From contig CAZEBU010000001.1 in the NCBI GenBank assembly GCA_964510435.1, positions 234,503 to 298,502 of the forward strand: DNA of 64,000 bases. Direction: 5' to 3'. The notes below the pieces were generated by a model. The model was given only the letters and a program-made list of their open reading frames with translations, ran no database searches and was not told where the DNA came from. The translations under genes were made by a program, and so were the position numbers. This document shows positions 6,216 to 46,914 of this stretch, one piece after another (within the stretch, counting starts at the first letter, position 1; each line of letters opens with the position of its first letter). This DNA comes from an uncultured Candidatus Saccharibacteria bacterium. Lineage in GTDB: Bacteria > Patescibacteriota > WWE3 > UBA101185 > UBA10185.

Positions 6216-8042
6216 CTATTCCTTTTCGAAATCGAAGAGGCGGCTTCTGATGGCTACATATGAGGGTGCTCTAAGATTGAAGACCGTTTTAAAGGTTTGT
6301 CCGTCTATTTTAACTGTACCGTTATCGGTCTCTAATTCTACCTGTGAGGTATAACCGCCGTTACTGACATCTACACTGATGCTTTTGACCTTTTTGTAGC
6401 TCTTACCGTATTTATTGGCTTTGTCACGCATTTTGTCTAGTGAGTAAGGGTCTCCGCCCCAGCAGCTGGTAGTCACCGGCGTGATACGATCCTTTTCGCT
6501 GCCGGAGCCTTTTGTCCAGACTACCCAGGCATTTACGATATCCGCCATTTCTTCTTCGGTGAGCCAAGGATGGGATCTACCGCAGTTGCTATTGTCATTG
6601 TAGCTTTTGGTATACCAGGCTTTTCTAAACCAAGGGCTGCCGCCTTCTTTTTCATAAGCATCCTCAGGCCAGCACGAAGAGCCACCGCATTTTGTGTCCC
6701 AACCAACGTTATTAATATAACCTCCGGTAGTGGAGGAATACCATCCATAACCGGAAGCATCGGTGCTGCCGTCGATGATCTTGTTTTTTGTATCTTTGAC
6801 TGCGTCCTTCCATCTACCCGGGGGATCATCGCTTTTACTCTTTAGGAATACCTGACAGTTTTGTGTTGTACAAATACAGAGACCTTTTTTGGCAAACCTG
6901 TAGGCATAAGATCTGCCAGCCACCGCCTGTGCTTTCAAGGCGTCTGAATCCCAGCTGCTAGGCATCTCGGCCAAACCATAGAGGTATTTCTGGTAGTCCA
7001 TCTCGCCGTAGCCTTCCACGCAGATCTTGCTAGGAAAATCATCCTTTTCTTTTACATCTTCCTCATAATAAAACTCAATAATGTCTTTATAACCTTTACC
7101 CTTTTCCGCCCTGCCTCTAGCTCCATACTGACTCATTCCTTTATAGTGCGTGTACGCTCCGTAACTAAAGGCGGCAAAAGCAGGGTCAAAAGGAGGATCC
7201 GGGGTCTTAGCTTCGGAGGGTTCATATTCTCCCACACTACCGCTTTCCGTACCGTATTTTTGGTTTAAAATAGCTTGTTGTTTAGAGGAGAGCTCGGCGA
7301 TTTCCTGCTCCAGGTCAAAGAGTTCCTCTTCGTAATCTTCCTCTTCCTCTTCCAAGTTACTGAACTCATTTTGTGCCGAAGCTTTTTTACTATCTACATC
7401 AGCTTTTAGAGATAACAAACTGTTTTGTGTACCTTCCAGCTCGGATATGATAGTTTCCGCTTCCAGCCTGTCTGTTTCAAAGGTGTTGATCTCTGAATTC
7501 AACAAGTAGATCCATTGTAAAGCGTCGTCAGTGAGGGATTTATTAAATATGTAAGAGAAAGATGAATACTGGAATCCGGTGAGATTAGTACCAAAGGGAT
7601 TGAAGGCAAAAAATATTTCCAGGTCGCTCTTAAATCTTTTTTTGGAATAATTTCTGATAACTTTGTTTCTAAAATCAATCTTTTCTGCCAGCTTACCGCG
7701 GCGATCACTGAGGTTTTCGTTGATGATGTTTAGCTCTTCGCTGATAAAGTTAATTTCGCTTTGCAGCTCGTCAATTTGTGCTTGTGTCACATTTAGTTCC
7801 GAAAGGTACTGGTTTATGGTGGCTTCAATGTTGTCCATTTTGCCTCTAATATCGCCTAGCTTATTTGAGGTGGACTCGTATTTTTCTTGTTTGTCTTCGA
7901 TCTTATTGGCGTAGCAGTCTGCTCTGTCATCTAGATCTTGGATCTCCGAGCATCCCCCAACAACCGGTTTGGGTACAAGAGCCAGCAGGAAAGCCAGAGA
8001 TACTATGAGGAGAGATGTTTTAAACAGGTTCCTTGCGGGCAT
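6216..8042 (-). CDS. Secreted coiled-coil protein with C-terminal SpoIID/LytB-like domain (peptidoglycan remodelling)
   Basis: N-terminal signal peptide and a long heptad-rich coiled-coil region. C-terminal AQAVAGRSYAYRFAKKGLCICTTQNCQVF matches the SpoIID family motif (AQAVAARTYA...CDTTxCQVY). Confidence 0.6.
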   Translation of the reverse strand: MPARNLFKTSLLIVSLAFLLALVPKPVVGGCSEIQDLDDRADCYANKIEDKQEKYESTSNKLGDIRGKMDNIEATINQYLSELNVTQAQIDELQSEINFISEELNIINENLSDRRGKLAEKIDFRNKVIRNYSKKRFKSDLEIFFAFNPFGTNLTGFQYSSFSYIFNKSLTDDALQWIYLLNSEINTFETDRLEAETIISELEGTQNSLLSLKADVDSKKASAQNEFSNLEEEEEDYEEELFDLEQEIAELSSKQQAILNQKYGTESGSVGEYEPSEAKTPDPPFDPAFAAFSYGAYTHYKGMSQYGARGRAEKGKGYKDIIEFYYEEDVKEKDDFPSKICVEGYGEMDYQKYLYGLAEMPSSWDSDALKAQAVAGRSYAYRFAKKGLCICTTQNCQVFLKSKSDDPPGRWKDAVKDTKNKIIDGSTDASGYGWYSSTTGGYINNVGWDTKCGGSSCWPEDAYEKEGGSPWFRKAWYTKSYNDNSNCGRSHPWLTEEEMADIVNAWVVWTKGSGSEKDRITPVTTSCWGGDPYSLDKMRDKANKYGKSYKKVKSISVDVSNGGYTSQVELETDNGTVKIDGQTFKTVFNLRAPSYVAIRSRLFDFEKE

Positions 8043-8155: not shown

Positions 8156-8518
8156 ATGGTTAAAATCTTGCAAACCCTAGGATACTTTGTCTTTTCGCTG
8201 TTTGCATCCGCAGGGGTTGTTTACGCTGATGCGGAATCGGTACAGGAATTTATTGACAGCGTCGCTTTGGATGAGGCTGAGATAGCTGTAGGTATATATA
8301 ACTTCTTATTTCCTATTGGTTTGGCCGTAGGTTTTTTTGCCATAATCATGGCAGGCTACTCATACCTAACTAGCCAAGGACAACCGGATAAGGTAAAAGA
8401 AGCTAGCGAAAAATTAACCAGCGCTATACTTGGTATTATTTTTATAGCTCTATCTCTGGTCATCTTGCGGATCATTGTAGTTTCGTTATTGGGAGGCTCA
8501 TTACCCTTAGCTACGTAG
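8156..8518 (+). CDS. Small secreted two-helix hairpin protein, VirB2/TrbC-pilin-like (paralog 1 of 4)
   Basis: Signal peptide (..AGVVYA|DAES). Two hydrophobic helices separated by a short polar loop (AGYSYLTSQGQPDK...). Conserved motifs are shared with the next three ORFs. Confidence 0.5.
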   Translation: MVKILQTLGYFVFSLFASAGVVYADAESVQEFIDSVALDEAEIAVGIYNFLFPIGLAVGFFAIIMAGYSYLTSQGQPDKVKEASEKLTSAILGIIFIALSLVILRIIVVSLLGGSLPLAT

Positions 8519-9913: not shown

Positions 9914-10552
9914 TTAATATGCGTAGTGGGGGGGTATAAAATACTCATCCTCTAAAATATTCCCCCAAAGTTGCATAAATTCATCCGCACTCATGGGTGT
10001 AAAATATGACTCTTGGTAAACAACCTGTGTGGTATCGAAGACGTTAAACCAAACCCCCTCATCCAGGTAAATATGGGCTTTTTCGTAAAAACCGTTTTTA
10101 TCGTATTTAATTATGTCAGGCTCGTCCAACTCCAAACGCTCTTTATAGGAGGAGAAAGGCAAAGCTTCATCATAGGATATAGGAATTCTCACAAACGCAA
10201 CTTTACCGTCTTTATCGACACCAATCTGGTGTTCCCTGACACCTGTCTTCGCGTCTCTGTGTACATAGAGAACCAACCCTTTGAAAGATCTTGAGGTAAG
10301 GAGTTTGCCGAATTTATCTTTGATATTCTCGTAGCTTGTTTTTCCTGGAGTAATACCATTCCAGGTATTTACTCTGTTTTCGGGTTTTACGTTATAGACA
10401 TCTGGAGAACCCAATTCCGGTTTTTCTGATTTAGGAATGCGTATACGTCCAAGGAATAAAATTATAATTCCTGCAACTAACCCAAAAACAAATATGAGAA
10501 AAAGTTTGTTTTCGAAAATAGTTTTTATAATAACCTTTAATTTATTTAGCAT
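9914..10552 (-). CDS. Bitopic membrane protein (N-terminal TM anchor + ~180-aa extracytoplasmic domain); speculative VirB8-like position
   Basis: A single N-terminal TM helix, LFLIFVFGLVAGIIILFLG. Sits 6 nt downstream of the 1075-aa gene on the same strand, so the two are probably co-transcribed. Confidence 0.45.
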   Translation of the reverse strand: MLNKLKVIIKTIFENKLFLIFVFGLVAGIIILFLGRIRIPKSEKPELGSPDVYNVKPENRVNTWNGITPGKTSYENIKDKFGKLLTSRSFKGLVLYVHRDAKTGVREHQIGVDKDGKVAFVRIPISYDEALPFSSYKERLELDEPDIIKYDKNGFYEKAHIYLDEGVWFNVFDTTQVVYQESYFTPMSADEFMQLWGNILEDEYFIPPHYAY

Positions 10553-13500: not shown

Positions 13501-13786
13501 CATCACCAAGTTCTAGCGCACGCATAGGGTCGTAAGACACGCCTTTTGGTTTTGTTTGGGCAATTAAAGTTCTTTCCACATCGTCAATAAAGAACTTTTT
13601 AGCTTGATTACCAATGGTTAATTTATCCAGCTCTTTTCTAACCGCAAACAAGTACTTTTCGATCAAAGCATCCGTATTAAATTCGACCATATCAGGGGGT
13701 CTACTATAAGGAGGTCTTTTTCTAGGAATAGGCTTGCCAGGATAGTATCCGCCAAGAAGTTCGTAAAAAGGGTTTGAGTCAGGCAT
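10559..13786 (-). CDS. Large membrane protein: ~730-aa N-terminal domain without signal peptide, two central hydrophobic helices, C-terminal Cys/Gly-rich domain with HExxH zincin-like motif
   Basis: AHETGHVYAM motif in the C-terminal domain. Strongly hydrophobic segment GLVVVIPVMVVFIFILTAITPV. No Walker A motif was found. Confidence 0.5.
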   Translation of the reverse strand: MPDSNPFYELLGGYYPGKPIPRKRPPYSRPPDMVEFNTDALIEKYLFAVRKELDKLTIGNQAKKFFIDDVERTLIAQTKPKGVSYDPMRALELGDEEDVAGVQLELDINPVKWLRNPGEMAKDTVDRFVKDFANWKDFDSYMEQSAMWKPLLSGGEIKPIPGIVSKVYGEHLDESATTKFRPFQLKGLDIPKAKVSVGLLYQEQVGGKETKEFTETETDLFAKSGGAFLSYMQAVRASGTRNKAYRKLINAAALASSAELTQLIDSGDISDPKEVEIVKSYLHRARAIRMANALQGISSSDINTYKFASDRVLTDAQKKAGETLYGEGIGYGLAGLTKELSAYTYGAATIDDANKRLGRVVENITKINVALEEMDNWFIELGGNTLDEFVKDTKPLRNLLKDLDKLKDEKITGETQARNLSGKIGLLQKKYAREGQVKGSLDRMNRKFVETHLLNSPLTKVIFSNDKIVGTKNLANVMEEALRTYKREDFYDLIDRLENDGLLHIAADQFWVLFRERLNGFTPARFLKEKLKRRHYFGLLYDSRYSVEDGVPGDDAVKSSKFFNGIMGTRLFANRQTHNIEGVGKFKFTGNFNIQLGTGLNDRTTLDKSDALHLTGKSFIQLLNGKTGPGVAYKVSYYDGFKELEDVKQRAKSLRKWLMKHNKQLGLKFDANGYLINSPENIEKLKALFKGLDKIEINSDFISILQSKAGILDKLSQRANIIQSKIFKYFKFLAPVAYARNVASKWLSKMATKAISKVLAKVVGAAVAAGTSGIGTVLIPLIEKVVQYVIKKAMDFAAATLKAIKEAKFDAIEKYVEKSAQAVFKLAGYVMGCFGLVVVIPVMVVFIFILTAITPVDPTRMAAGKDFGGGPAAGPPIVCPPEECEVISTVGCFEFLEGWDSGEGPQALSIIQSAAGGLAGTRGRYVDRLCAAGPIEIAWNRGAGCGWARGLNRIEFGDGRCWTYNSANQLLFNWLFAHETGHVYAMRYGMGALGTAQSNDSGYTLPTYVGPTGNQCSTSNNNSEDFAETVGQYHVLSGQCTNVSPSEFWHSYGTYCPTCFEGHYNFATSSFLFGP

Positions 13787-13813
13787 ACGTTTATTTTATA
13801 ATAGATTTATAGT

Positions 13814-15247
13814 ATGAGAAAGGAAACCCTGCTTGATAGAAAAATAGTTCTTAAATTAGCTACATTCTTATTTGTCGGCTTTTTGTTCCTTGGATTATCA
13901 CCAAAAGCGCATGCAGGGGTGTGCGATGAACAACCCCCAAAATTTAGATTTGATATCATGATTGCCTGCAAACTTAAGGAGATTAATCCCCTGGTCTCTA
14001 TTCAGAGAACAATCAACGACGCGGCAACTACCATACTCACTAATGTTTTAGCCTCCATAGTTTTTAATAGTAATCCTGATGATCTGGGGACGTGCGGCGT
14101 TGCTATGTTGGCGGATCGAATAGACACTCTTCCCGGAGTGAATATGACGGACATTACTGATCAAAATGGAGTTTTGTTTAGTGCTGCGGAAGTGCAGGAT
14201 GCTCGTGATGCAGCCCCGGCCATCGGCTGTGATTTTAACGACACCCTTTTCGGGTCAAGGGCTAACGGCAGTTTGATGGGAGTAACTAAATTTGCTTTTA
14301 ACACGGTAACAACAGAGCAGCCTCCGATTAATTTGGCTTATTATTTCAAGCACAATTTGCAGAAGGTACCCATTATCAGTGATACAGCTTATGCACAAAC
14401 AGTGAGCTATAACGCCTGGGGATTGGAATTTGCTATCCAGATTTGGGAAAAATCACGCAACATTGCCTACGCCATGATGTCGGTTATCATGCTTGTCATA
14501 GGCATCCTTATTATTACCAGGAAAAAAATAAACCCCCAGACTGTAGTTTCTGTACAAACGGCTCTACCCAGGATAGTGATCAGCCTTATTCTTATTACTT
14601 TTAGCTATCCTATCGGGGCCATCTTAATATCCATAGGTTACGCCTTGGTAGTCGTTGTTATCAGGTTGTTTTTTGGAACTATTATAGATGATGTATCCCA
14701 GTTGGCGGATATGGATGTGCTGGTAATGATGGTTACTATTATGGCAGCTACTATTGGACCTCAAGGAGTAATAGGAGTAGTGACGGCAATGCTAATGGCT
14801 GTTTTGACCATCATAGCTTTGCTAGTGGCTATTATTAAGATTATAATTATTAATCTAAAGGTTCTTATTGCTATAATTTTTGCACCTATTCAGTTTGCTA
14901 TCGCAGCCATCCCGGGGCAGGAGGACCTGGTGCAGGATTGGTTTAAGAAGATGCTCGCCAAAGTGTTAGCTATTCCTGCCATATTCTTTATGATTGCCCT
15001 AGCTTGGTATATGCTCATTGTGCCCTTTACCAATCCAGATTTCTTTACCAGCATACTCGTACAATCCACTGACCCGATAAGTATTGGATATACCCTGATC
15101 AGAGGAGCAAGGGCGGTTGGTTCCAGAATGATCACTATTATGTTGCTTCCCCTTATGACCATTATGACTATGTTTTTTGCTTTGAAAGCGGATAAAGTAG
15201 TGGAAGAGTTTATTATGGGCGGTAGAGGTAAACCTAAAAGAAGATAG
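13814..15247 (+). CDS. Polytopic membrane protein with signal peptide and N-terminal extracytoplasmic domain, VirB6/TrbL-like architecture
   Basis: Signal peptide followed by a ~200-aa soluble region. At least five long hydrophobic helices in the C-terminal half. Divergent from the 1075-aa gene with only a 27-nt gap. Confidence 0.45.
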   Translation: MRKETLLDRKIVLKLATFLFVGFLFLGLSPKAHAGVCDEQPPKFRFDIMIACKLKEINPLVSIQRTINDAATTILTNVLASIVFNSNPDDLGTCGVAMLADRIDTLPGVNMTDITDQNGVLFSAAEVQDARDAAPAIGCDFNDTLFGSRANGSLMGVTKFAFNTVTTEQPPINLAYYFKHNLQKVPIISDTAYAQTVSYNAWGLEFAIQIWEKSRNIAYAMMSVIMLVIGILIITRKKINPQTVVSVQTALPRIVISLILITFSYPIGAILISIGYALVVVVIRLFFGTIIDDVSQLADMDVLVMMVTIMAATIGPQGVIGVVTAMLMAVLTIIALLVAIIKIIIINLKVLIAIIFAPIQFAIAAIPGQEDLVQDWFKKMLAKVLAIPAIFFMIALAWYMLIVPFTNPDFFTSILVQSTDPISIGYTLIRGARAVGSRMITIMLLPLMTIMTMFFALKADKVVEEFIMGGRGKPKRR

Positions 15248-15259
15248 TTAGATAATTAA

Positions 15260-18200
15260 ATGATATGCGCCGTTATGAAATCCAGCAGATTTACCAAGAT
15301 ATTTACGATCCTCCTAGTTTTATTAGGAGTTTCCCTATTTAACAACGTATTTGCACAAGAAGAATGTGACGAAGACGGTTTTATTGTCAATAGCTATTGT
15401 CCTTGTCCCCCTGATCCTGGTATAGCTTCAGTTTGCGGATTTGTGAGTGACGCGAATATTACCCAGGATCTTCCCGATACGGGTATAGAAAGAGCAATCT
15501 GGTCTACCAGAAAACCTGTACCCGGTGTTACCGTGACCATTTATGAAAATAACCCTGATATACCAACAGGTAAGCCGTATGGGAAGCTAGACAGAAAATT
15601 TGGTGCCTGCTACACCACAGAAGAAGAAGGAAAATATCACTGTTTAATGCGGAGACTTAATCCCGGCAACATGGCCTATGTCATTTTTAGCTGTGACGGA
15701 AAAATAGCGGATATGAAGATTATACCCACTGTGAAAAGTTACATAGGACTAGATTCAGATATAGATTGTAGCGGCGAATATAGTTACAATGCCCTAGATG
15801 ATGAGCTAGACTTTGCTGAGAGAAGTAATTTTTTGGGCTGTTTATCAACATCTGATGAAGAGGAAAATGTTAACGCCGGTTTTGAGGAACCGGAGTACAT
15901 CTACAAAAGTGCTGATATTGGTGAGAAGGGTGGAGATATTAGATTCAACCCTTTCACTGGAGTTTTACCCATTGTTGGTGTGCACAACGGTGCCTTTTGG
16001 GAAAAGGATTGTTTGTTCGAATTCACAGGACCGTTAGATTTAAACAGAGAATACGCTCTATTCGGAGGTTTTTTTGGTTTAGCAAACTATGGAAGTGTGT
16101 CAGAAAAGTGTAATTTGGATCCGGACAGAGATGGTGATGGAGCTATAGACGGCGATGATGGAAATCCCCTCAATGATCCTGATGAACTCACAGTGCCGTT
16201 CAGATATGATATTCCAACATTGCAGTTAGAGCACGAGCAGCAGAGGATTTGGGAGACCAGAACTTCCATGCAACGGGAAATACAGGATCCCAGAGCATTT
16301 CAACAGTACAACCATCTCATGTTTGGTGAATGTGTAGGTAGGGCGTTTCTCAGGTATTTTGGCGATGATGATGAAGACCTGCCTATTTCCTGCAGTGAGC
16401 TGGCGGAGTGTAACGAAGCCTTAGGAGATCCTTTTAGGAATACACACACAGCATTGAGTTTAGGATCACGTCTTGAGTTACAAGTTACTTGGGAGGACAT
16501 CTTAGATGCAAATGAAAGGGATCCGGAGGACATAGTTTGCGAAGATGAAGAATTGGGAGAGATTATGATTTCTGAGGTGCAACCACCATTCCCTGATAAC
16601 CCGTGCGAACCGGGAAGCCCGGGGTGCCCATATAAGTTATCAAGAGATTACTATATGCCGCAGTTTTTTGTTGAGGTTGGTGGTGTAAAAAAACCTAAAA
16701 CAGCAGAAACAGCGAATGACGCATATGGAAGTATCCCTAGGAGTTTAGTATGGGAACCTATAAGTACAGAAGCGGAAACTCCCCATGAATCAGGGCACTA
16801 TGTGAATTATGAGGACAAATCTTCGCAGAGGACAAACTCAGGCAGGACAGCTATCAGATTAGCCTCGAAAAGTAATGCTGATCTCGGGGACGTTATGACT
16901 AACAGGTTCGTGAGTTACATAGACGCTGTAGATGAAACTTATGATTATAATTCGGAATCAACAATTTGGGATGCAGGTGGAGATGTTAAAAGCCTATGTA
17001 CCATTTCTAGTGTTAACGATTTGCTTATAATTCCCGACCTGGCTACAGAAACCACAACTTTGGTGAGCAACGAGTTTGTTGGAGATGAAACGGATCATAA
17101 AGAGGACGAAACGGCGGCCTCGTCAACCTATGGTACAAATTGGGGTATGGCAAGAGACGAAGCTATGTCAAACGATTATTTCTGGCGTGATGTGCTTGAT
17201 ACCTTACAAAGGTACTCAAGTGGTGGCGGTGTGCAGCTAGACTTGATGACCGCTTGGGCAATCGTAAGAAACATTGCCTCACGTGGAGCCGGTAATGTTT
17301 ATAAATCGTTCGCAGAAAGAATAGATAACTGGGCACAAGTAGGCTACCCTTCTTATATGAATACGGAATACTGCATTGCCGAAGATACCTTTGAAGCAGC
17401 CTTCCCAGCTTATGGTACAGGAGGTTATCCTGGCGGACACGCTTGCTATCCTTGGATAGATGTGCCCAGTGGGGAAAATTGTGACGCTTGGCCGGGACCT
17501 CCGGGTGAGTGGCCTCCTACTCCAGAGGTGAGTGCGCTAGGTTATAACGCTGGTTCATGGCCAGGTATAGAGGGAGAGCTAAGAACATGCAGAGCTTTAA
17601 ATTGTGAGATAAGAACAAAAACTCGAACTTGCGATGAGGAAATATGCAGGTGGGTTTGGAATTCACGCGCCGGCGTATTTGTTTGGGTGTGCAGTGGTTG
17701 CGGGGATAATAATGGAGATGGGAACGTGGACTCAAACATTGATGATTCTACGAGAGGCTGTAACGACGGTGAGCTTAGGGCCTGTTTAGTTGAGCAAAGA
17801 GATAACTGGGATGAACAGCCTCCAGATCCCCCTCCACTGGATCCCCCTGATTATGATGATGAAAATAGTAGTATACGCGCTTGTGATTTAGAAAAAGCCG
17901 GACCAATGCAAGAGCCGGGTGATATTTGGAAAGACCACTCTGCTAGGATAGTTCAGCAGCCTTTTTTCGGGCAATCTCAAGAAAATGTTGATACGGTGTC
18001 CTTGACCGCTAACTACACGGCACTTTCCCTAACCAGTAAGGTTGAAGAAAGAAGAGAAAGCCATAAGGTTAGTTTTGTAGATTATGCATCCACAAATGAT
18101 ATCAGCGGAGGGGGACCTGCACAGGCCATAGATCCTGATAGGCTTAGGCACAGGAACACCGCAGGCACAAATTCTCAAGGATTTGGTACCGGGGCGGCAG

Positions 18201-18892
18201 TAGATCTACTAAAAACCATTAGCCACCCCGAAAGGTTTGGTTCTCTGGTTGAGCCGTTGCCGGACTGGATTCCAAATTGTAATTTTTATGATCCTAATTC
18301 ATGGTGTTATGCTATTCAACCTCCTGGTCCCATCGATTTAGATAGTTTGGATGGAGGTGCATGTAATCCAAATACTACTCGGGGAGCATGTCCTTTGAAC
18401 GGTTATGTACCCGCTATTGCAGAGAGAATACTAGGTGCCGCCGGAGCTAATTCGGGGGTTGATGGCGCAGTTTTGCTGGCAGCCATATATGGAGAAGGTG
18501 GGTGGATTGGTCCTGGGGCAAGGCTTGATTGGATAGATGCCAACGTCAGAGCCTGGAGCGAACCCTGGTATGCGAGAATACCTGGATGTAACGACATGGT
18601 GCCCACAGCCCAGGGACCTTTTGGTATGATAACCCGTTGGTTTGAAGGTGCGGTAGCTAATGGAGGATACCACCCATCGAGAGTAAGTCCTACCAACGGA
18701 CAGGTTATAGTCAGTAAATGTAACTTTATAGACGCAGCTTATGCTGCGGCACAGATGCTTGGTGGAATAGGATGTAATGGTTTTAGTGCAGCTGATGTAA
18801 GACAGAGATTAGCGGTTTACAGAGGCGGTTCTCAAGCAAATCCGGCAGACGTACCCCAGTTTTTAGTAGACACCGCTATGAACTGCCGCTAA
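15260..18892 (+). CDS. Giant secreted Cys-rich protein with Asp-rich calcium-binding-like repeats (DxDxDGxxD) and a possible C-terminal lysozyme/lytic-transglycosylase-like domain
   Basis: Signal peptide (..NNVFA|QEE). Very many Cys residues. DPDRDGDGAIDGDDGNPLNDPDE resembles thrombospondin-type-3 Ca-binding repeats. The C-terminal region (AIYGEGGW...GPFGMITRWF) is weakly reminiscent of SLT-type motifs. Confidence 0.5.
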   Translation: MICAVMKSSRFTKIFTILLVLLGVSLFNNVFAQEECDEDGFIVNSYCPCPPDPGIASVCGFVSDANITQDLPDTGIERAIWSTRKPVPGVTVTIYENNPDIPTGKPYGKLDRKFGACYTTEEEGKYHCLMRRLNPGNMAYVIFSCDGKIADMKIIPTVKSYIGLDSDIDCSGEYSYNALDDELDFAERSNFLGCLSTSDEEENVNAGFEEPEYIYKSADIGEKGGDIRFNPFTGVLPIVGVHNGAFWEKDCLFEFTGPLDLNREYALFGGFFGLANYGSVSEKCNLDPDRDGDGAIDGDDGNPLNDPDELTVPFRYDIPTLQLEHEQQRIWETRTSMQREIQDPRAFQQYNHLMFGECVGRAFLRYFGDDDEDLPISCSELAECNEALGDPFRNTHTALSLGSRLELQVTWEDILDANERDPEDIVCEDEELGEIMISEVQPPFPDNPCEPGSPGCPYKLSRDYYMPQFFVEVGGVKKPKTAETANDAYGSIPRSLVWEPISTEAETPHESGHYVNYEDKSSQRTNSGRTAIRLASKSNADLGDVMTNRFVSYIDAVDETYDYNSESTIWDAGGDVKSLCTISSVNDLLIIPDLATETTTLVSNEFVGDETDHKEDETAASSTYGTNWGMARDEAMSNDYFWRDVLDTLQRYSSGGGVQLDLMTAWAIVRNIASRGAGNVYKSFAERIDNWAQVGYPSYMNTEYCIAEDTFEAAFPAYGTGGYPGGHACYPWIDVPSGENCDAWPGPPGEWPPTPEVSALGYNAGSWPGIEGELRTCRALNCEIRTKTRTCDEEICRWVWNSRAGVFVWVCSGCGDNNGDGNVDSNIDDSTRGCNDGELRACLVEQRDNWDEQPPDPPPLDPPDYDDENSSIRACDLEKAGPMQEPGDIWKDHSARIVQQPFFGQSQENVDTVSLTANYTALSLTSKVEERRESHKVSFVDYASTNDISGGGPAQAIDPDRLRHRNTAGTNSQGFGTGAAVDLLKTISHPERFGSLVEPLPDWIPNCNFYDPNSWCYAIQPPGPIDLDSLDGGACNPNTTRGACPLNGYVPAIAERILGAAGANSGVDGAVLLAAIYGEGGWIGPGARLDWIDANVRAWSEPWYARIPGCNDMVPTAQGPFGMITRWFEGAVANGGYHPSRVSPTNGQVIVSKCNFIDAAYAAAQMLGGIGCNGFSAADVRQRLAVYRGGSQANPADVPQFLVDTAMNCR

Positions 18893-19904: not shown

Positions 19905-19940
19905 AAAAAGCAAATGTGTTTAATGTACGTTTGCTTTTTT
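19905..19940. terminator. Weak A/U-rich hairpin between tmRNA 3' end and the convergent membrane-protein gene; possible bidirectional terminator
   Basis: Stem AAAAAGCAAA / TTTGCTTTTT with a 15-nt loop, flanked by T runs on both strands. The stem has low GC. Confidence 0.25.
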
Positions 19941-21134
19941 TACAGCTAGTTTCAAGATCCAAAACGCTAAAATAAGATAAACGAGGGTAGTTCCGAACTG
20001 AAGGTACAAAAATCCCGACCAGGACAACAAAAACATCAAAATCAGGAAGCTGTAGAGCCTTCTATTATCGGATTTTCTGTAGAAATCACTGCTAACTAAG
20101 TACAAGGGCAAAAGAAAAACTACTATGTCAACCGGCATAGTGTGCAGGTTGATCAAAGGGGTGAAAAAAACTATGGCTGCAAAGGCCAAGTCTTTATTAA
20201 TGTATTCGTTTTTCTTAGCAAGCGTAAGTAAAACTGCTCCATAAAGAAGTAAGTTTACTATAACTGTTGTAACCTTAAGATAAGTACTGTTGCTTATTAA
20301 TAACGATAAGGACGAGCTGAGGTTATAGTTGAGTAATACGTTAGTTCCGTAACTTACCGACTCGCTGAGAAAGAGAAACTTTGGGTAGGTAGTTAAAAAC
20401 CCAATTCCATATAAACCAATATTTAACACCACCAGAACCGCCAGCGAAGAAACTATTCCAATCAACAAGCTCTTCACTTTCTTATCCTTCGAAAAAAGAA
20501 CCACCAACATAGGAATAATGATAAGGAACTGAGGTTTTAAAAGTACGAACCCTACAACTAAACCTGCTAACAGCATTCGTCTATTTTTAATAAAATAATA
20601 TGTTAAGGAAATGATCAACAGGATCAATAGAGAGATTTGGCCTGCGCTGACGTTACTCCAAATAGGTATATACCAGGGAAGTGCTAACAGGAGGTAAAAC
20701 CAGATTTTTTTATCGACAGTTACCATTTTGTAGTATACTGCCAGAATTAAGACGACCAGAATTATATTAACAAGAGCCAAAGGGTAAAAAGCTTCCGTGT
20801 AACTCATTTCGGCTAACGGACGCACTAGGAGCCCCGTTATGGGCGGCGCTCTGAAGGCTAGTATTCCCTTCATTTTTTCTAACCCGGCAAGCTCACTCTG
20901 AGTTTCTACTTGGGCATCCCAATCGTAGAGTTTTTTTATGCCCTCATCTTTTATTATCTTGGCACCCGTATAGTACATGAGAAAATCCGGAGGGTTATTA
21001 TCTTCGATCCAGTTCCTTCCTACTCGCACCTTTATCTTATTTGTCATGGATTCCAAAAGGAAAAGTGAAGCAAATATTAAAAATGCCGTAAGGAGGAGAG
21101 TTTTTATTTTTCTAGTACTTGGAGCATTAATCAT
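19920..21134 (-). CDS. Polytopic integral membrane protein, possible GT-C-type glycosyltransferase (DUF2029-like)
   Basis: 404 aa with at least ten predicted TM helices. No soluble catalytic domain was recognised. Confidence 0.4.
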   Translation of the reverse strand: MINAPSTRKIKTLLLTAFLIFASLFLLESMTNKIKVRVGRNWIEDNNPPDFLMYYTGAKIIKDEGIKKLYDWDAQVETQSELAGLEKMKGILAFRAPPITGLLVRPLAEMSYTEAFYPLALVNIILVVLILAVYYKMVTVDKKIWFYLLLALPWYIPIWSNVSAGQISLLILLIISLTYYFIKNRRMLLAGLVVGFVLLKPQFLIIIPMLVVLFSKDKKVKSLLIGIVSSLAVLVVLNIGLYGIGFLTTYPKFLFLSESVSYGTNVLLNYNLSSSLSLLISNSTYLKVTTVIVNLLLYGAVLLTLAKKNEYINKDLAFAAIVFFTPLINLHTMPVDIVVFLLPLYLVSSDFYRKSDNRRLYSFLILMFLLSWSGFLYLQFGTTLVYLILAFWILKLAVKKANVH

Positions 21135-27854: not shown

Positions 27855-28523
27855 CTAGGGCACCAGTAAATAAAAGATCACATACTGCAGGGGATAAAAA
27901 ACATAAAATAAATATTTTACTCTCGGACCGGGTTTGCCATTGTAAAAAGCCACAAAGAATAGGGAGATAAGTGCAAACGGTTGTATGATAGAAACCATAC
28001 TAAACGCAACTTGCTTAGTTAGTACCAAAATGGGAAGCAATCCAAAATAAATAGCGGATTGCGATAAGAGCATCATTTTAATATCTTCGAAATAGATATA
28101 AAAAGAAATAATGGATAAAACACCCAACATACCATAATCACTATCAATTAGCTGGGCTGTCGCTGAGTAGACCAGAACAGCGATAATTTTTACTAGATTA
28201 CTTTTCCCATCCCTGATCACTTTTATGCCTAGCAGTCCTAAAAACAAGGTAAAAAAAATGTTCAGCTGAGCAAACGAAACATCAATTGATCTAAAGGCAA
28301 TAGTGTAGGGAATTTGCGAGAGCAGAGAAAAGATAAAAAGTCTTTTTAAATAGGCATTGATGTCTTTTGTGTGCTTAGCGCCGTTGGCTATCATCCAGGC
28401 AAAAAGGGGAAAGGAAAGTCTTCCCAGTGCCCTAAGGAAAACTGCTTGAGGAAAAATGAAAACACCAATGTGGTCAATAGCCATAGCTAAAATAGCAATA
28501 ATTTTAATAGTGAAGGTATTCAT
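27855..28523 (-). CDS. TraX-family membrane protein (F-pilin acetylase family)
   Basis: N-terminal IKIIAILAMAIDHIGVF matches the TraX signature (LKxIAxxxMxIDHIG). Multi-pass membrane protein. Confidence 0.6.
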   Translation of the reverse strand: MNTFTIKIIAILAMAIDHIGVFIFPQAVFLRALGRLSFPLFAWMIANGAKHTKDINAYLKRLFIFSLLSQIPYTIAFRSIDVSFAQLNIFFTLFLGLLGIKVIRDGKSNLVKIIAVLVYSATAQLIDSDYGMLGVLSIISFYIYFEDIKMMLLSQSAIYFGLLPILVLTKQVAFSMVSIIQPFALISLFFVAFYNGKPGPRVKYLFYVFYPLQYVIFYLLVP

Positions 28524-30436: not shown

Positions 30437-31549
30437 ATGCCTAAAAAAGCAACGAAAAAAGCAACGAAAAAAGCAAAACTTAGCCTAAAAGAAAAAAATA
30501 TCAGGAAATTAATTACCATTGGTAAGAAACAAGGTTATTTAACCTTAACCCAGATATTGGAATTATTTCCTAACGCTGAAGAAGACATAGAAACATTGGA
30601 TTTCCTTTACGAGAAGTTATTGGATGCCAAAGTAGATGTTTTTGACGTGGAGTCAGAGAAGGAAGCTGAAAAATTAGCAGAGATAGAACAAATAGACCTC
30701 ACCAAGCAAAAGCTTGATAGAACGGTGTCTTCTGATCCGGTGCGCATGTATTTAAGAGAAATCGGCAAAGTGGACCTATTAAAGGCAGAAGAAGAAGTTG
30801 AACTAGCTAAAAGAGCTGAGAAACATGACCAGGAAGCCGCGGATCTACTGGCTAAAGCTAATTTAAGATTGGTTGTTTCCATTGCCAAAAAATATATGGG
30901 CAGGGGCCTGCACTTTTTGGATCTGATCCAAGAGGGTAATATAGGGTTGATGCGCGCCGTGGAGAAGTTTGACTGGAGAAGGGGTTTTAAATTTTCTACC
31001 TACGCCACCTGGTGGATCAGGCAGGCCATTACCAGAGCCATTGCCGATCAAGCCAAAACTATCAGAATTCCGGTACACATGGTAGAAACAATCAATAAAT
31101 ACAAGAAAATTGAGCGAGAATTGGAGCAAAAGCTGCAAAGACCGCCCAACCCTGATGAAATTGCCAAAGTTATGGGGATAGATGAAGATAAGGCCCACGA
31201 AATAGAAAGAATTTCCCAGGACACCACCTCTTTAGAGACCCCTGTAGGTAAAGAGGAGGACACCCGATTAAAAGAATTCATTAAAGACGAAGTTACCGTA
31301 TCCCCTTTTGATTCGGCTAGCCAGGAATTGTTAAAGGGCCACATTGACGACGTTTTGGAAACACTAAATCCCAGGGAAAGAAGAGTATTGTCCTTAAGAT
31401 TTGGCCTGAAAGATGGTAGGAACAGGACTTTGGAAGAGGTAGGACGAGAGTTTGGGGTAACTAGGGAAAGAATTAGACAAATTGAAGCCAAGGCATTAAG
31501 AAAACTGAGACACCCCTCAAGAAGCAAGAGGTTAAGGGATTATTTGTAA
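30437..31549 (+). CDS. rpoD: RNA polymerase primary sigma factor (sigma-70 family)
   Basis: Region 2 is present ([48 protein letters not shown]). Region 4 is present (LRFGL...[18 protein letters not shown]). Confidence 0.95.
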
Positions 31550-33114
31550 TATAAGGTTTTAGGCTGAGGTTTAACCTCAGCCAGATTCTCATAGATAAAC
31601 ACATCCGAGAGTGGTATCAGGTTGGGTTTTGGTAAGACAAACTGATTGATTAACATAAATTGTCTAGGATCAAGTATGGTCTCCTCGAATTCTTTCCATG
31701 TTTGGTAATAAAAAGGGTAAGTTTCTCGTACAACCTCTCTTTTATAGTTGCTTAACGGCCTGGAAGAAATAACTACATAAGAGTAGTGCTCAAGATTTTC
31801 CGGTGTCTGAAACTGGGCTCCTTCGCTGGAGTATACCGGCAGGGTAACCACTTTTGAAGTAACGAGCTTGTTCATGGGGTCCAAGCCCTCTTCACTGTAA
31901 ACTAAAACACTTTTTATGGGATCCAGGTTATCACGCATCCAAAGGTAGGCCGCAGATTTTGGAGTATATCTTTGGAACTGATGCAGAAGTAGCGTTGGGA
32001 AATATAAGTAGGAAGCAAGCAGAAGTATAGCTACGAATAACAAAACCAGACGGCTTTTTAATCTTTCCAACAAATAGTCCAGCCCAAAGGATGCATACAT
32101 GAGAACAATAGGTAGGATAGGCAGCAACCAGCGGTCAACCCTTCGGCTCTGCAAAGTAAAAAACACCAGATATATGATGACACTGCCTACCAAAAAAATA
32201 TGAAAGTCAAGATCAACCCGTTCTTTAAATGATTTGTATTTCCCGTAAAGAGAAGATAGTAAAACTAATGGTGTAGTTATAAACCCCAAACCAAATATAT
32301 ATTTGTAGACAGATAGATCAACCGAGTCAAAGACCAAACCGCCTTCCTTGGTGAACATGGATAGTATGCGAAAAGTAAATCTTTCCGACAAGATAAAGGA
32401 AAAAGGATTTGTCATCATGAAAACCCCCAAAGCCACAAGATTTAACGCCGCCAATCCTCGATAGTCTTTTTTCCTAATGTATGGGTAGTAAAAGAGAGGT
32501 AGGGTTATGAGGGTAGTAATTTTTGTACCAATAGCCAGTCCCAACAACGCGCCTGTAAGCAATGTAAACTTAGTATCCTCTTCCTTCCTGCGAAAATAGT
32601 AGAAAAGAGTTAAGTAAGATAAAGAGAGTACGATGGTTTGAATGAGATCAGCATTTATGTAATGTGCGTGCACGATCAGTTTCCAATTTAGGGCAACTAA
32701 TAATAGTGTCACAAAAAATACCAGCCACTTTTTTCTTAGCTTATAACTTAAAACGGCTGTAGATAGCACAATGAATATGGACAGCAGAGCATTAAAAGAC
32801 CTCATGAAAACGTAGAGGCTAGTTTTATCAAAGGGCAGGCTCAGCAGGTTACTTAATTTGCTGAAAGTCATGGTGGCCAGTGTAAATAGGTAAGCAGGAA
32901 AAGTGCCGTAAACAAAAGAAATGGGTATGAGTTGGTAATAATCATTATTTTTAATGATGTTTCGTATTTCGTAGGTATATCTAATGGCTAATTCAGCTAT
33001 TTCCGGTTCATCAGCGTAAAAGCTGTGGGGTAAGCCAAACTCAATGTGATACAGCCTGAAAAATAATCCCAAGGCTAGTATAAAGAGGACCAAAAATTTA
33101 TGCAGTTTGCTCAT
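31540..33114 (-). CDS. Polytopic membrane glycosyltransferase, GT-C fold (ArnT/PMT-like), second copy
   Basis: 524 aa with many TM helices and a C-terminal soluble domain. Similar architecture to the 25107..26633 gene. Confidence 0.5.
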
Positions 33115-45801: not shown

Positions 45802-46914
45802 CTACTCCTCGACCCTGAACTCAGCATCAAGATCCTTCATGGTTTTCTTGAAAGCGCTGTACTCAAGTTCGTCGAAAGGGAGCATAGCTGCGCCCACAAA
45901 GCCCTGCTCACGCATGTAGTCTCCCTTGCGCTGTGCTTTGAGTCTAGTGGCATCCCAAACCGGATTCCCGAACATGTCTACGGGATTGGAAAGTATGCCA
46001 GCTTGGTTAACGGAGTAGGCTAAGCAGGAGACAATGGGTAGGCAATACGAGCCGGTTACCGGTGTACTTATAGCCACAGGCATAACAGGCATGTGGTGGC
46101 TTCCTCGGGCATCGCCTGCTGTGTAATGAGCAGTTGTCCAAGGGCTGACCACTTCTTCGGGAGCAGGGAAGAACTTTTGCACCCGAACAATAGCCACGGG
46201 GTCATCTTTTCCCTTGTACTCCCCGGCAATACTATGAAGTCTGTCGGTTGAGATGGAAACTACCTGTTGTTTTGGGTAGGTGTTGGAGTGGATAGCCTTG
46301 ATGCCAAATTTGTTCTCATCTCTAAGAAGGAAAGCCAGCTCCACGGCCTTGACCTTTCCGTTGAGGACAATCACTCTATCCTTTCCGACATGGTCCATGT
46401 CAATTACCGTAAAGGTGAATCCGGAGAGCATATTCGGGAGCATTAACCCCGCGCAGTACATGGGGTTGGTGAAGACATTCCAGAATGGAAAGTTGAAGAC
46501 ACCAGGACCACACTTATCGGCCGCAAATACTAAGAAGGGTTCGGATTCCCTTTCCTCGGCCTTTTCATCAAAAGTGATCTCGGCGACACCAGGCCCGGCA
46601 CCACGCACATTTCCTGAGGGAGCGTCGACAAGAAGATCCTGACCAGCACCGTATAGACCATCTTTCTTTGCCTCATCCGTGGCTGCTTCAAAAATCCTCC
46701 AGGCTAGCTGGTGAATGTCTTCGTTTAGATCACCATATCTGTGGGACATCAGAAGGCACAGATCATCACCGGTGAACGTCACCCGATGATCGATGAACTC
46801 TGACATCTGCGCATCCTCAAGCATCTCAGAAGCTACTTCGAGCATTCTGTCAGAGGGGCGGGTATGGCCTCCAATGCTACCCACGTCGGCCTTGATGCAA
46901 CTAATTGTAAGCAT
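45802..46914 (-). CDS. Bifunctional fructose-1,6-bisphosphate aldolase/phosphatase (class V FBPase, archaeal-type)
   Basis: N-terminal ISCIKADVGSIGGH motif characteristic of this family. Visibly higher GC than the neighbouring genes. Confidence 0.8.
   Translation of the reverse strand: MLTISCIKADVGSIGGHTRPSDRMLEVASEMLEDAQMSEFIDHRVTFTGDDLCLLMSHRYGDLNEDIHQLAWRIFEAATDEAKKDGLYGAGQDLLVDAPSGNVRGAGPGVAEITFDEKAEERESEPFLVFAADKCGPGVFNFPFWNVFTNPMYCAGLMLPNMLSGFTFTVIDMDHVGKDRVIVLNGKVKAVELAFLLRDENKFGIKAIHSNTYPKQQVVSISTDRLHSIAGEYKGKDDPVAIVRVQKFFPAPEEVVSPWTTAHYTAGDARGSHHMPVMPVAISTPVTGSYCLPIVSCLAYSVNQAGILSNPVDMFGNPVWDATRLKAQRKGDYMREQGFVGAAMLPFDELEYSAFKKTMKDLDAEFRVEE

Follow-up and report, generated by a model that had tools for sequence, protein, structure and literature searches.

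A large exported cysteine-rich protein with a predicted lysozyme-like C-terminal domain, encoded beside VirB2-type pilin genes in a WWE3 bacterium

The giant gene and its product

The DNA analysed here (the window) is a 64,000 bp stretch of contig CAZEBU010000001.1 (positions 234,503 to 298,502 of the forward strand, assembly GCA_964510435.1) of an uncultured bacterium that is recorded as Candidatus Saccharibacteria and placed by GTDB in the WWE3 lineage of the Patescibacteriota. Close to an array of VirB2-type pilin genes it carries the gene for a very large cysteine-rich protein, called the giant below, which has a signal peptide and ends in a predicted lysozyme-like domain. The reading that we favour, with a probability of about 0.45, is that the giant is the peptidoglycan-glycan-cleaving component of a type IV secretion system (T4SS)-like WWE3 pilus or secretion cluster. 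The gene and the features recognised in it are as follows, with residues counted from the first ATG of the open reading frame (ORF).

15260 to 18892, + strand: uninterrupted ORF of the giant, 1210 codons
15260 to 15355, + strand: Sec-type signal peptide, aa 1–32, from hydropathy and reading of the sequence (hydrophobic core 9–32, VFA/QE cleavage-type site)
15356 to 15859, + strand: N-terminal conserved module, aa ~33–200, with CPCP..ICG..GVTVxIYEN..GKYxC..PGN..VFxCxGK; the best conserved block
15860 to 18274, + strand: central body, aa ~201–1005, family-specific, with many invariant Cys and homology along 960 profile positions
16115 to 16186, + strand: Asp loop 1, aa 286–309, LDPDRDGDGAIDGDDGNPLNDPDE, with an exact DxDxDGxxDxxD match at 289–300
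17588 to 17899, + strand: Cys-rich beta-hairpin segment, aa 777–880, which holds Asp loop 2
17693 to 17746, + strand: Asp loop 2, aa 812–829, with a looser, partial match, DNNGDGNVD, at 816
18275 to 18889, + strand: C-terminal domain, aa 1006–1210, a Cys-knotted linker followed by a predicted divergent lysozyme-like (GH23/Slt/goose-lysozyme-type) domain
18494 to 18496, + strand: codon of Glu1079, the predicted catalytic acid (..LLAAIYG-E-GGW), from conservation, hhalign and position in the model
18719 to 18733, + strand: C-N-F-I-D motif, aa 1154–1158, from an alignment of 45 type-A domains (see below)

An earlier reading of the same letters, made without database searches (the first-pass annotation), had described a 1210-aa ORF with a signal peptide, and both are borne out: the frame is open throughout, and its product begins with a hydrophobic stretch that is followed by the VFA/QE site. 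There is a second in-frame ATG at 15275, which is Met6 and would give a giant of 1205 aa. NCBI records an identical protein (P0001, 100% identity) whose gene call has this length and begins at Met6, and in the alignment of the giant with its orthologues all of them also begin there (MKSSRF...), so ATG 15275 is the likelier true start and the ORF start at 15260 is probably 15 nt too early. Past the signal peptide, hydropathy and sequence reveal no further transmembrane (TM) segment, lipobox or C-terminal anchor. Because this single N-terminal hydrophobic stretch with its cleavage-type site is the only such element, the straightforward reading is that the giant is exported by Sec and is released or wall-associated, with a predicted mature length of about 1,170 residues.

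The C-terminal domain

The three C-terminal stretches that the first-pass annotation had singled out as weakly resembling soluble lytic transglycosylase (SLT) motifs, AIYGEGGW, GPFGMITRW and AAYAAAQMLGG, lie at aa 1074–1168 and are kept among the orthologues. Structure prediction, which had been proposed there as a check, came out lysozyme-like: an AlphaFold2 (AF2) model of aa 1006–1210, built from six aligned orthologues, has a predicted local distance difference test score (pLDDT) of 85.1 and a predicted template modelling score of 0.87, and shows a lysozyme-like alpha-helical fold. For sequence comparison an SLT profile was made from E. coli K-12 Slt70, MltE, MltC and MltD. The best local hhalign alignment of the C-terminal domain to it lays ILGAAG..LLAAIYG-E-GGW over ..AMAIARQ-E-SAW, with Glu1079 on the catalytic Glu of Slt70 (P 0.0085 with six sequences and 0.0016 with 45, at hhalign probabilities of only 5–16%). 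Glu1079 is invariant in the six full-length close orthologues, and in the model it stands two residues past the helix at 64–72 (domain numbering); the acid of GH23 enzymes sits at such a post-helix position. Glu1079 is thus predicted to occupy the position of the GH23 catalytic Glu.

The low hhalign probabilities are among several results that weigh against this assignment. The five AF2 models of the domain score 85, 67, 63, 43 and 40, so that one of the five is confident. Foldseek searches with the model gave no significant match (best E 0.45 in PDB and 0.28 in BFVD), and the weak lists that they returned include MltE, MltF, GEWL-like proteins, tail lysins and tape-measure proteins. The search for an SLT or lysozyme-like domain that the first-pass annotation had recommended was empty, in that neither Pfam SLT (PF01464) nor NCBIfam matched and the isolated domain of the six orthologues found nothing in Pfam even at E ≤ 10; a profile search of PDB sequences with the domain likewise gave no lysozyme-like match. 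By sequence, membership of the SLT family is not shown. The lytic C-terminus of the first-pass annotation therefore stands at the level of the fold, through one confident model, and not at that of family profiles. We consider it quite probable that the C-terminus is a very divergent lysozyme-like domain, the wall-hydrolase claim being a computational one that rests on this single model.

Across the wider family the domain of the window type (type A), which about 45 of the 58 full-length members carry, is marked less by Glu1079 than by its cysteines and by the C-N-F-x-D motif. All 45 type-A domains have C1110, C1154, N1155 and C1172, while F1156, D1158 and C1209 are each missing from a single one, and D1158 is the sole acidic residue that is nearly universal. 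Glu1079 is kept in 18 of the 45, comprising the whole clade of the window protein and several deep branches. It is absent from the other 27, which is a further point against the assignment; 24 of the 45 have Ile, Val or Leu at this position. The members that lack it have a conserved Asp or Glu fourteen residues downstream, at the equivalent of 1093 (37 of 45), and in a subclade in which Glu1079 is replaced (P0022–P0035, P0038, P0039, P0044, P0046 and others) a 'GE' stands about 14 residues downstream and C-N-F-L-D is near-invariant. In that subclade the catalytic acid could have migrated or the activity could have been lost, and, judging from the alignment, part of the family uses another acid or is non-catalytic. 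Because Glu1079 is lost in most type-A domains, the case for catalysis across the family is weakened; that for the window protein is unaffected.

The family and its variable C-terminus

A word-indexed search found seven relatives of 1,045–1,314 aa, none of which has a Pfam domain and one of which is labelled "Patescibacteria group bacterium". An exhaustive hidden Markov model search with the N-terminal 960 positions extended these to 72 representatives at 50% clustering, 47 of them at E ≤ 1e-30; almost all are 1,050–1,650 aa long, and homology runs along the whole body of about 960 aa. Among GTDB species genomes, which were scanned as well, the close relatives fall in metagenome-assembled genomes of candidate division WWE3, with one record labelled Saccharibacteria. 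The orthologues are at most 55% identical, a divergence at which synonymous sites would be saturated. Searches with the C-terminal domain profile and with a 27-sequence profile returned the same close family or fragments only. As far as these sequences go, the protein is specific to WWE3-type Patescibacteria. A phage origin was also considered and is rejected, as IMG/VR holds no relative of the giant and its neighbours are chromosomal housekeeping genes.

Full-length members without a type-A domain are P0020, P0021, P0025, P0028, P0052, P0058, P0060 and P0066. Six of these (P0020, P0025, P0028, P0052, P0058 and P0066) carry an unrelated module at the C-terminus, type B, with an invariant ..PCE..A..H..E.. 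pattern; the C-terminus of P0021 carries ..AAWVEESGA.. ('EESG'); and that of P0060 is an HExxH...EDFAE domain which is 36% identical (E 9e-19) to the ectodomain of the 1,075-aa protein encoded beside the giant in the window (see below). P0072 has a significant VanY (D-Ala-D-Ala carboxypeptidase) domain, but has only the N-terminal module in common with the giant. The type-B, 'EESG' and P0026 C-termini gave only non-significant results as wall hydrolases in Pfam, PDB and hhalign comparisons. In the alignments the body is conserved across the family, while lineages differ in the module that follows it, one alternative module being common to a neighbour's ectodomain; that all of the modules attack the cell wall is no more than a suggestion, and the notion of a swappable hydrolase is only partly shown.

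Cysteines, body and Asp-rich loops

The giant contains 39 Cys (3.2%; the mean of the 50 remaining ORFs in the window is 0.66%, with a binomial P of ~2e-15), in agreement with the dozens noted by the first-pass annotation. When 27 relatives as distant as 22% identity are aligned, 11 Cys do not vary and 10 more hardly do, about 21 in all; these conserved residues are structural, in an extracellular protein, and presumably form disulfides. The "many CxxC / CxC spacings" also reported are not there, since the protein has exactly one CxxC (811 CSGC) and one CxC (47 CPC). On this count a CxxC protein of the redox or zinc-ribbon kind was discarded as a reading.

The full giant has no match in Pfam, NCBIfam or PHROGs, and phmmer and profile searches of PDB sequences gave chance-level hits only. 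Conservation is highest in the N-terminal module (identity 0.63 at aa 101–150), and the distant matches P0072–P0077 cover only profile positions ~9–170, which is this module, so that the stretch up to residue ~170 behaves as a unit of its own that also occurs alone in shorter or differently built proteins. Beta strands in a low-confidence AF2 model, together with a weak transthyretin-like match in the corresponding module of relative P0067 (E 0.008, below the cutoff), suggest that it is probably a beta-sandwich, and it may have a scaffold or binding role. AF2 on the N-terminal 973 aa, with a 7-sequence alignment, gave a pLDDT of 34 and no usable model. The segment at aa ~777–880 (construct residues 745–848, pLDDT 55–83) is the sole part of the body that is modelled with moderate confidence, and is the least conserved one (0.26).

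The first-pass annotation had likewise seen repeats resembling calcium-binding sites of the thrombospondin type-3 or cadherin kind. Two Asp-rich loops are indeed present, one an exact and the other a partial match to the motif, and two are more than expected from composition-preserving shuffles (mean 0.05 per shuffle, P(≥2) = 0.001). They are not repeats, because 530 residues separate them. Of the 50-residue blocks of the giant, the two that contain the loops are the least conserved (identity 0.36 and 0.26), and a loop of this kind occurs in only 9 of the 58 full-length representatives; the window protein, P0002 and P0003 have loop 1, P0004 has a shortened form of it and P0005–7 lack it. The loops look like lineage-specific insertions that do not define the protein, and they may bind Ca2+. 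The recommended domain search found neither Pfam TSP_3 nor any cadherin profile in the giant at E ≤ 0.1, and a TSP3 or cadherin repeat protein was rejected on these grounds and on the spacing of the loops. The first-pass annotation was to be abandoned if no lysozyme-like or SLT fold were predicted and the repeats did not fit Ca-binding motifs. The fold is predicted, and the repeats fit by half.

Genes surrounding the giant gene

The genes between the SpoIID-domain gene and the giant are listed here.

6216 to 8042, − strand: SpoIID-domain protein, 608 aa (PF08486, E 2.6e-15), with an N-terminal anchor and a ~250-aa coiled coil; syntenic in loci L008, L010, L011 and L013
8156 to 8518, 8643 to 8996, 9092 to 9430 and 9437 to 9907, + strand: four VirB2-type pilin genes (PF18895 T4SS_pilin, E 2.7e-8 to 6.3e-5), each encoding a two-TM hairpin
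9914 to 10552, − strand: single-pass membrane protein, 212 aa, of no recognised family; a 179-aa gene has the equivalent position in L013
10559 to 13786, − strand: divergent membrane protein, 1,075 aa, with an N-terminal cytoplasmic part of ~760 aa, two TM segments and, at the C-terminus, a Cys-rich ectodomain with a zincin-like HETGH...SEDFAE
13814 to 15247, + strand: polytopic protein, 477 aa, with a signal peptide, a ~190-aa ectodomain and 6–7 TM segments; VirB6-like in topology only

The 477-aa gene ends 12 nt before the giant ORF, and the two are therefore probably co-transcribed; no + strand terminator was predicted before 18892, which is weak evidence. An orthologue of the 477-aa gene adjoins the giant gene in all related loci, and smpB lies directly downstream of the giant gene in all WWE3 loci. 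The 477-aa and 1,075-aa proteins belong to no Pfam, NCBIfam or PHROGs family and gave only chance-level matches in PDB sequence searches; there is a weak precomputed CHAP match on the orthologue of the 1,075-aa protein in L002. The divergent start codons of these two genes are 27 nt apart, and a promoter-like site, TTGAGT-17-TATAAT (13774–13802), extends across the start of the 1,075-aa gene; the number of promoter-like sites in the region is not above that in shuffles.

Five WWE3 loci have the same gene order: SpoIID, four pilins, 1,075-aa gene, 477-aa gene, giant, SmpB. The gene set recurs around P0036, which is 23% identical to the window protein and whose gene is inverted, and around P0060, where smpB intervenes between the 477-aa gene and the giant gene. 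The pilin array and the 477-aa gene adjoin the giant gene in eight related loci, of which two are distant and rearranged; in these distant loci, L013 and L015, the giant gene has been inverted or transposed and is still accompanied by the 477-aa, 1,075-aa and pilin genes. Retention of the set through rearrangement argues for a functional linkage of its members, and the HExxH domain of the 1,075-aa protein at the C-terminus of P0060 argues for one between the giant and that neighbour in particular.

The order of the pilin array is conserved in the related WWE3 loci, with 35–70% identity per position, and only the first pilin gene (8156–8518) exceeds the Pfam gathering score. The SpoIID-domain gene is the best conserved of the block (56–75% identity across loci); its product, from a family of cell-wall lytic enzymes, is a second candidate wall-lytic enzyme beside the pilins.

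Possible function of the giant

In the reading that we favour, the large body would hold the giant in the wall or on the apparatus, and the C-terminal domain would make local cuts in the glycan and so open a passage for the pilus or channel, a role in which the giant would be a functional analogue of VirB1, PrgK or CwlT. The wall attacked may be the cell's own or that of a host, and the chemistry may be that of a muramidase or of a lytic transglycosylase. Of the associations that would mark a T4SS hydrolase, a conserved neighbourhood with T4SS-type components was found, the VirB2-type pilins being the only such components recognised in the window, and a cluster with VirB4 was not found within the window: neither VirB4 nor VirD4 is encoded there among the ORFs of at least 500 aa, all of which were scanned. 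This counts against a role in such a cluster, as do the likeness of the 477-aa protein to VirB6, which is one of topology alone, and the housekeeping genes within the conserved block (those for SmpB, a phosphoribosyltransferase and bPH), from which it follows that part of the synteny may be plain conserved gene order. So, too, do the lineages of P0019 and P0025, which carry the giant gene beside a Suf operon with no pilin or 477-aa neighbour detected. All of these facts except the VirB6 likeness speak for a general autolysin, a wall-remodelling enzyme of growth or division that would lie near the pilin genes merely through conserved gene order, and the SpoIID-domain enzyme in the same block can be added to them. 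Such an enzyme is nevertheless hard to square with a gene set that holds together in L013 and L015, with a domain that is common to the giant family and the 1,075-aa neighbour, or with a Cys-rich body of 970 aa, which is unusual for a housekeeping autolysin, and we think it improbable.

A wall-directed giant might instead be turned outward. Its body would then be a delivery or tip module and its C-terminal enzyme an exchangeable warhead that breaches a host wall during epibiotic attachment, on the analogy of evolved VgrG, of Tse3-type type VI secretion system (T6SS) effectors and of phage tail-associated lysins. The giants would be the host-contacting tip or effector of a pilus machine specific to Patescibacteria, with a disulfide-locked body of about 960 aa and a warhead tuned to the host wall, which would be lysozyme-like here and, in other lineages, one of the other Glu-motif modules or the zincin-like domain. 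A conserved N-terminal region followed by non-homologous C-terminal modules, as in polymorphic toxins, is what the family has; the downstream immunity gene expected of such toxins is missing, no candidate adjoining the giant gene and smpB being the gene that follows it. The alternative C-termini are non-significant as wall hydrolases, no host is known for WWE3 and no viral relatives were found, and we regard this outward-facing model as unlikely, though it is the chief alternative and a more novel one than the reading we favour. Were the domain to bind peptidoglycan or another polysaccharide without cutting it, the beta-sandwich-like N-terminal module and the Asp loops, one of them an exact DxDxDG match, would suit an adhesin, and the loss of the candidate catalytic Glu from 27 of 45 representatives would be explained; its strict retention in the clade of the window protein and in several deep branches, and the possible alternative acid at the 1093 equivalent, make such a non-catalytic glycan binder about as improbable as an autolysin. 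Least probable of all, in our view, is that the lysozyme-like fold is an artefact of modelling and the C-terminus simply another family-specific Cys-rich domain; the alignment of only six sequences, the four poor models and the non-significant results of Foldseek and of all sequence methods would be expected in that case, and they are set against the one confident model and the placement of Glu1079.

A large share of bacterial diversity belongs to the Patescibacteria, whose few cultivated members live attached to host bacteria. The giants form a small, unannotated family, invisible to Pfam and conserved beside WWE3 pilin genes, and as such are a candidate for an unrecognised wall hydrolase of Patescibacteria pili; the variation at the C-terminus points to an exchange of the wall-attacking part in the course of evolution. 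If the host-directed model were true, the family would offer a concrete molecular handle on how the uncultured epibiont lineage WWE3 opens its host.

Comparison with known systems

Well-known monoderm equivalents of VirB1 are PrgK of pCF10, TraG of pIP501 and CwlT of ICEBs1. Such equivalents in monoderm conjugation are large and multidomain, with SLT and CHAP domains (PMC12102498). The T4SSs of Patescibacteria are MPF-FATA-like and have 2–11 pilins in their VirB2 arrays, usually without a relaxase; VirB1 homologues are rare in these bacteria and seldom near virB4, from which the authors of that survey concluded that either no VirB1-type hydrolase is needed or unrecognised glycosidases substitute for it (PMC12102498). 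In Southlakia, lysozyme and peptidase homologues adjoin virB4 (PMC12102498), and in Southlakia epibionticum, the sole genetically tractable species, the T4SS and pilins are essential for epibiotic growth (PMC10633639).

Like VirB1, PrgK, TraG, CwlT and TcpG, the giant has a predicted glycan-cleaving domain and is encoded beside T4SS-type genes; like the last four it is large and multidomain and would act outside the membrane, in a monoderm, MPF-FATA-like setting of the sort described for Patescibacteria (PMC12102498). It differs from the VirB1-type hydrolases in having no detectable homology to VirB1, TrsG, CD419-type or Pfam SLT profiles. No CHAP, NlpC/P60 or LytM second domain like those of PrgK, TraG and CwlT is found in it by Pfam, and the HExxH ectodomain is a separate one, on the 1,075-aa neighbour. 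A predicted cleavable signal peptide replaces the N-terminal anchor of T4SS hydrolases, the 970-aa Cys-rich body is additional, and VirB4 is absent from the 64-kb window. With those profiles failing, no second peptidase domain or anchor, and the extra body, the giant is not, by these comparisons, a demonstrable member of the VirB1 or monoderm hydrolase families. The cluster resembles the T4SS cluster of S. epibionticum (SEML1_0006–0019) in combining a VirB2-type pilin array with wall-hydrolase genes and in lacking a relaxase or coupling protein nearby (PMC10633639, PMC12102498). This likeness is one of gene content; Southlakia belongs to the Saccharimonadia and the giant comes from WWE3, and the Southlakia hydrolases, unlike the giant, adjoin virB4.

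The ES, GLMQ and AYNxG motifs of GH23 proteins (Slt70, MltE, MltC, MltF, goose-type lysozyme and the Ralstonia GH23 chitinase) are not conserved as such in the C-terminal domain of the giant, which has four invariant Cys and the C-N-F-x-D motif, and in most of the wider family the Glu is lost as well. Tse3, the T6SS muramidase effector of Pseudomonas aeruginosa (PDB 4luq), shows an identity of 11%, and neither a T6SS nor an adjoining immunity gene accompanies the giant. Phage tail-associated lysins and tape-measure proteins share with the giant a very large size and a structural body joined to a lineage-variable C-terminal module, predicted here to be wall-degrading; the giant differs from both in having no phage context and no relative in IMG/VR.

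Other genes in the window

TraX acetylates pilin in F-type conjugation systems, and a strong match to the TraX family (PF05857, E 2e-39) lies at 27855–28523 (− strand), about 9 kb downstream of the cluster and about 18 kb from the pilin array. Membrane glycosyltransferases of the GT87 family and of a PMT-like (protein O-mannosyltransferase-type) kind flank the cluster region at 19920–21134 and 31540–33114 (both − strand) and may be relevant to glycosylation of surface proteins. We note finally a strong match to the archaeal-type fructose-1,6-bisphosphatase at 45802–46914 (− strand; PF01950, E 4.5e-130), an unusual enzyme of central metabolism in a bacterium.

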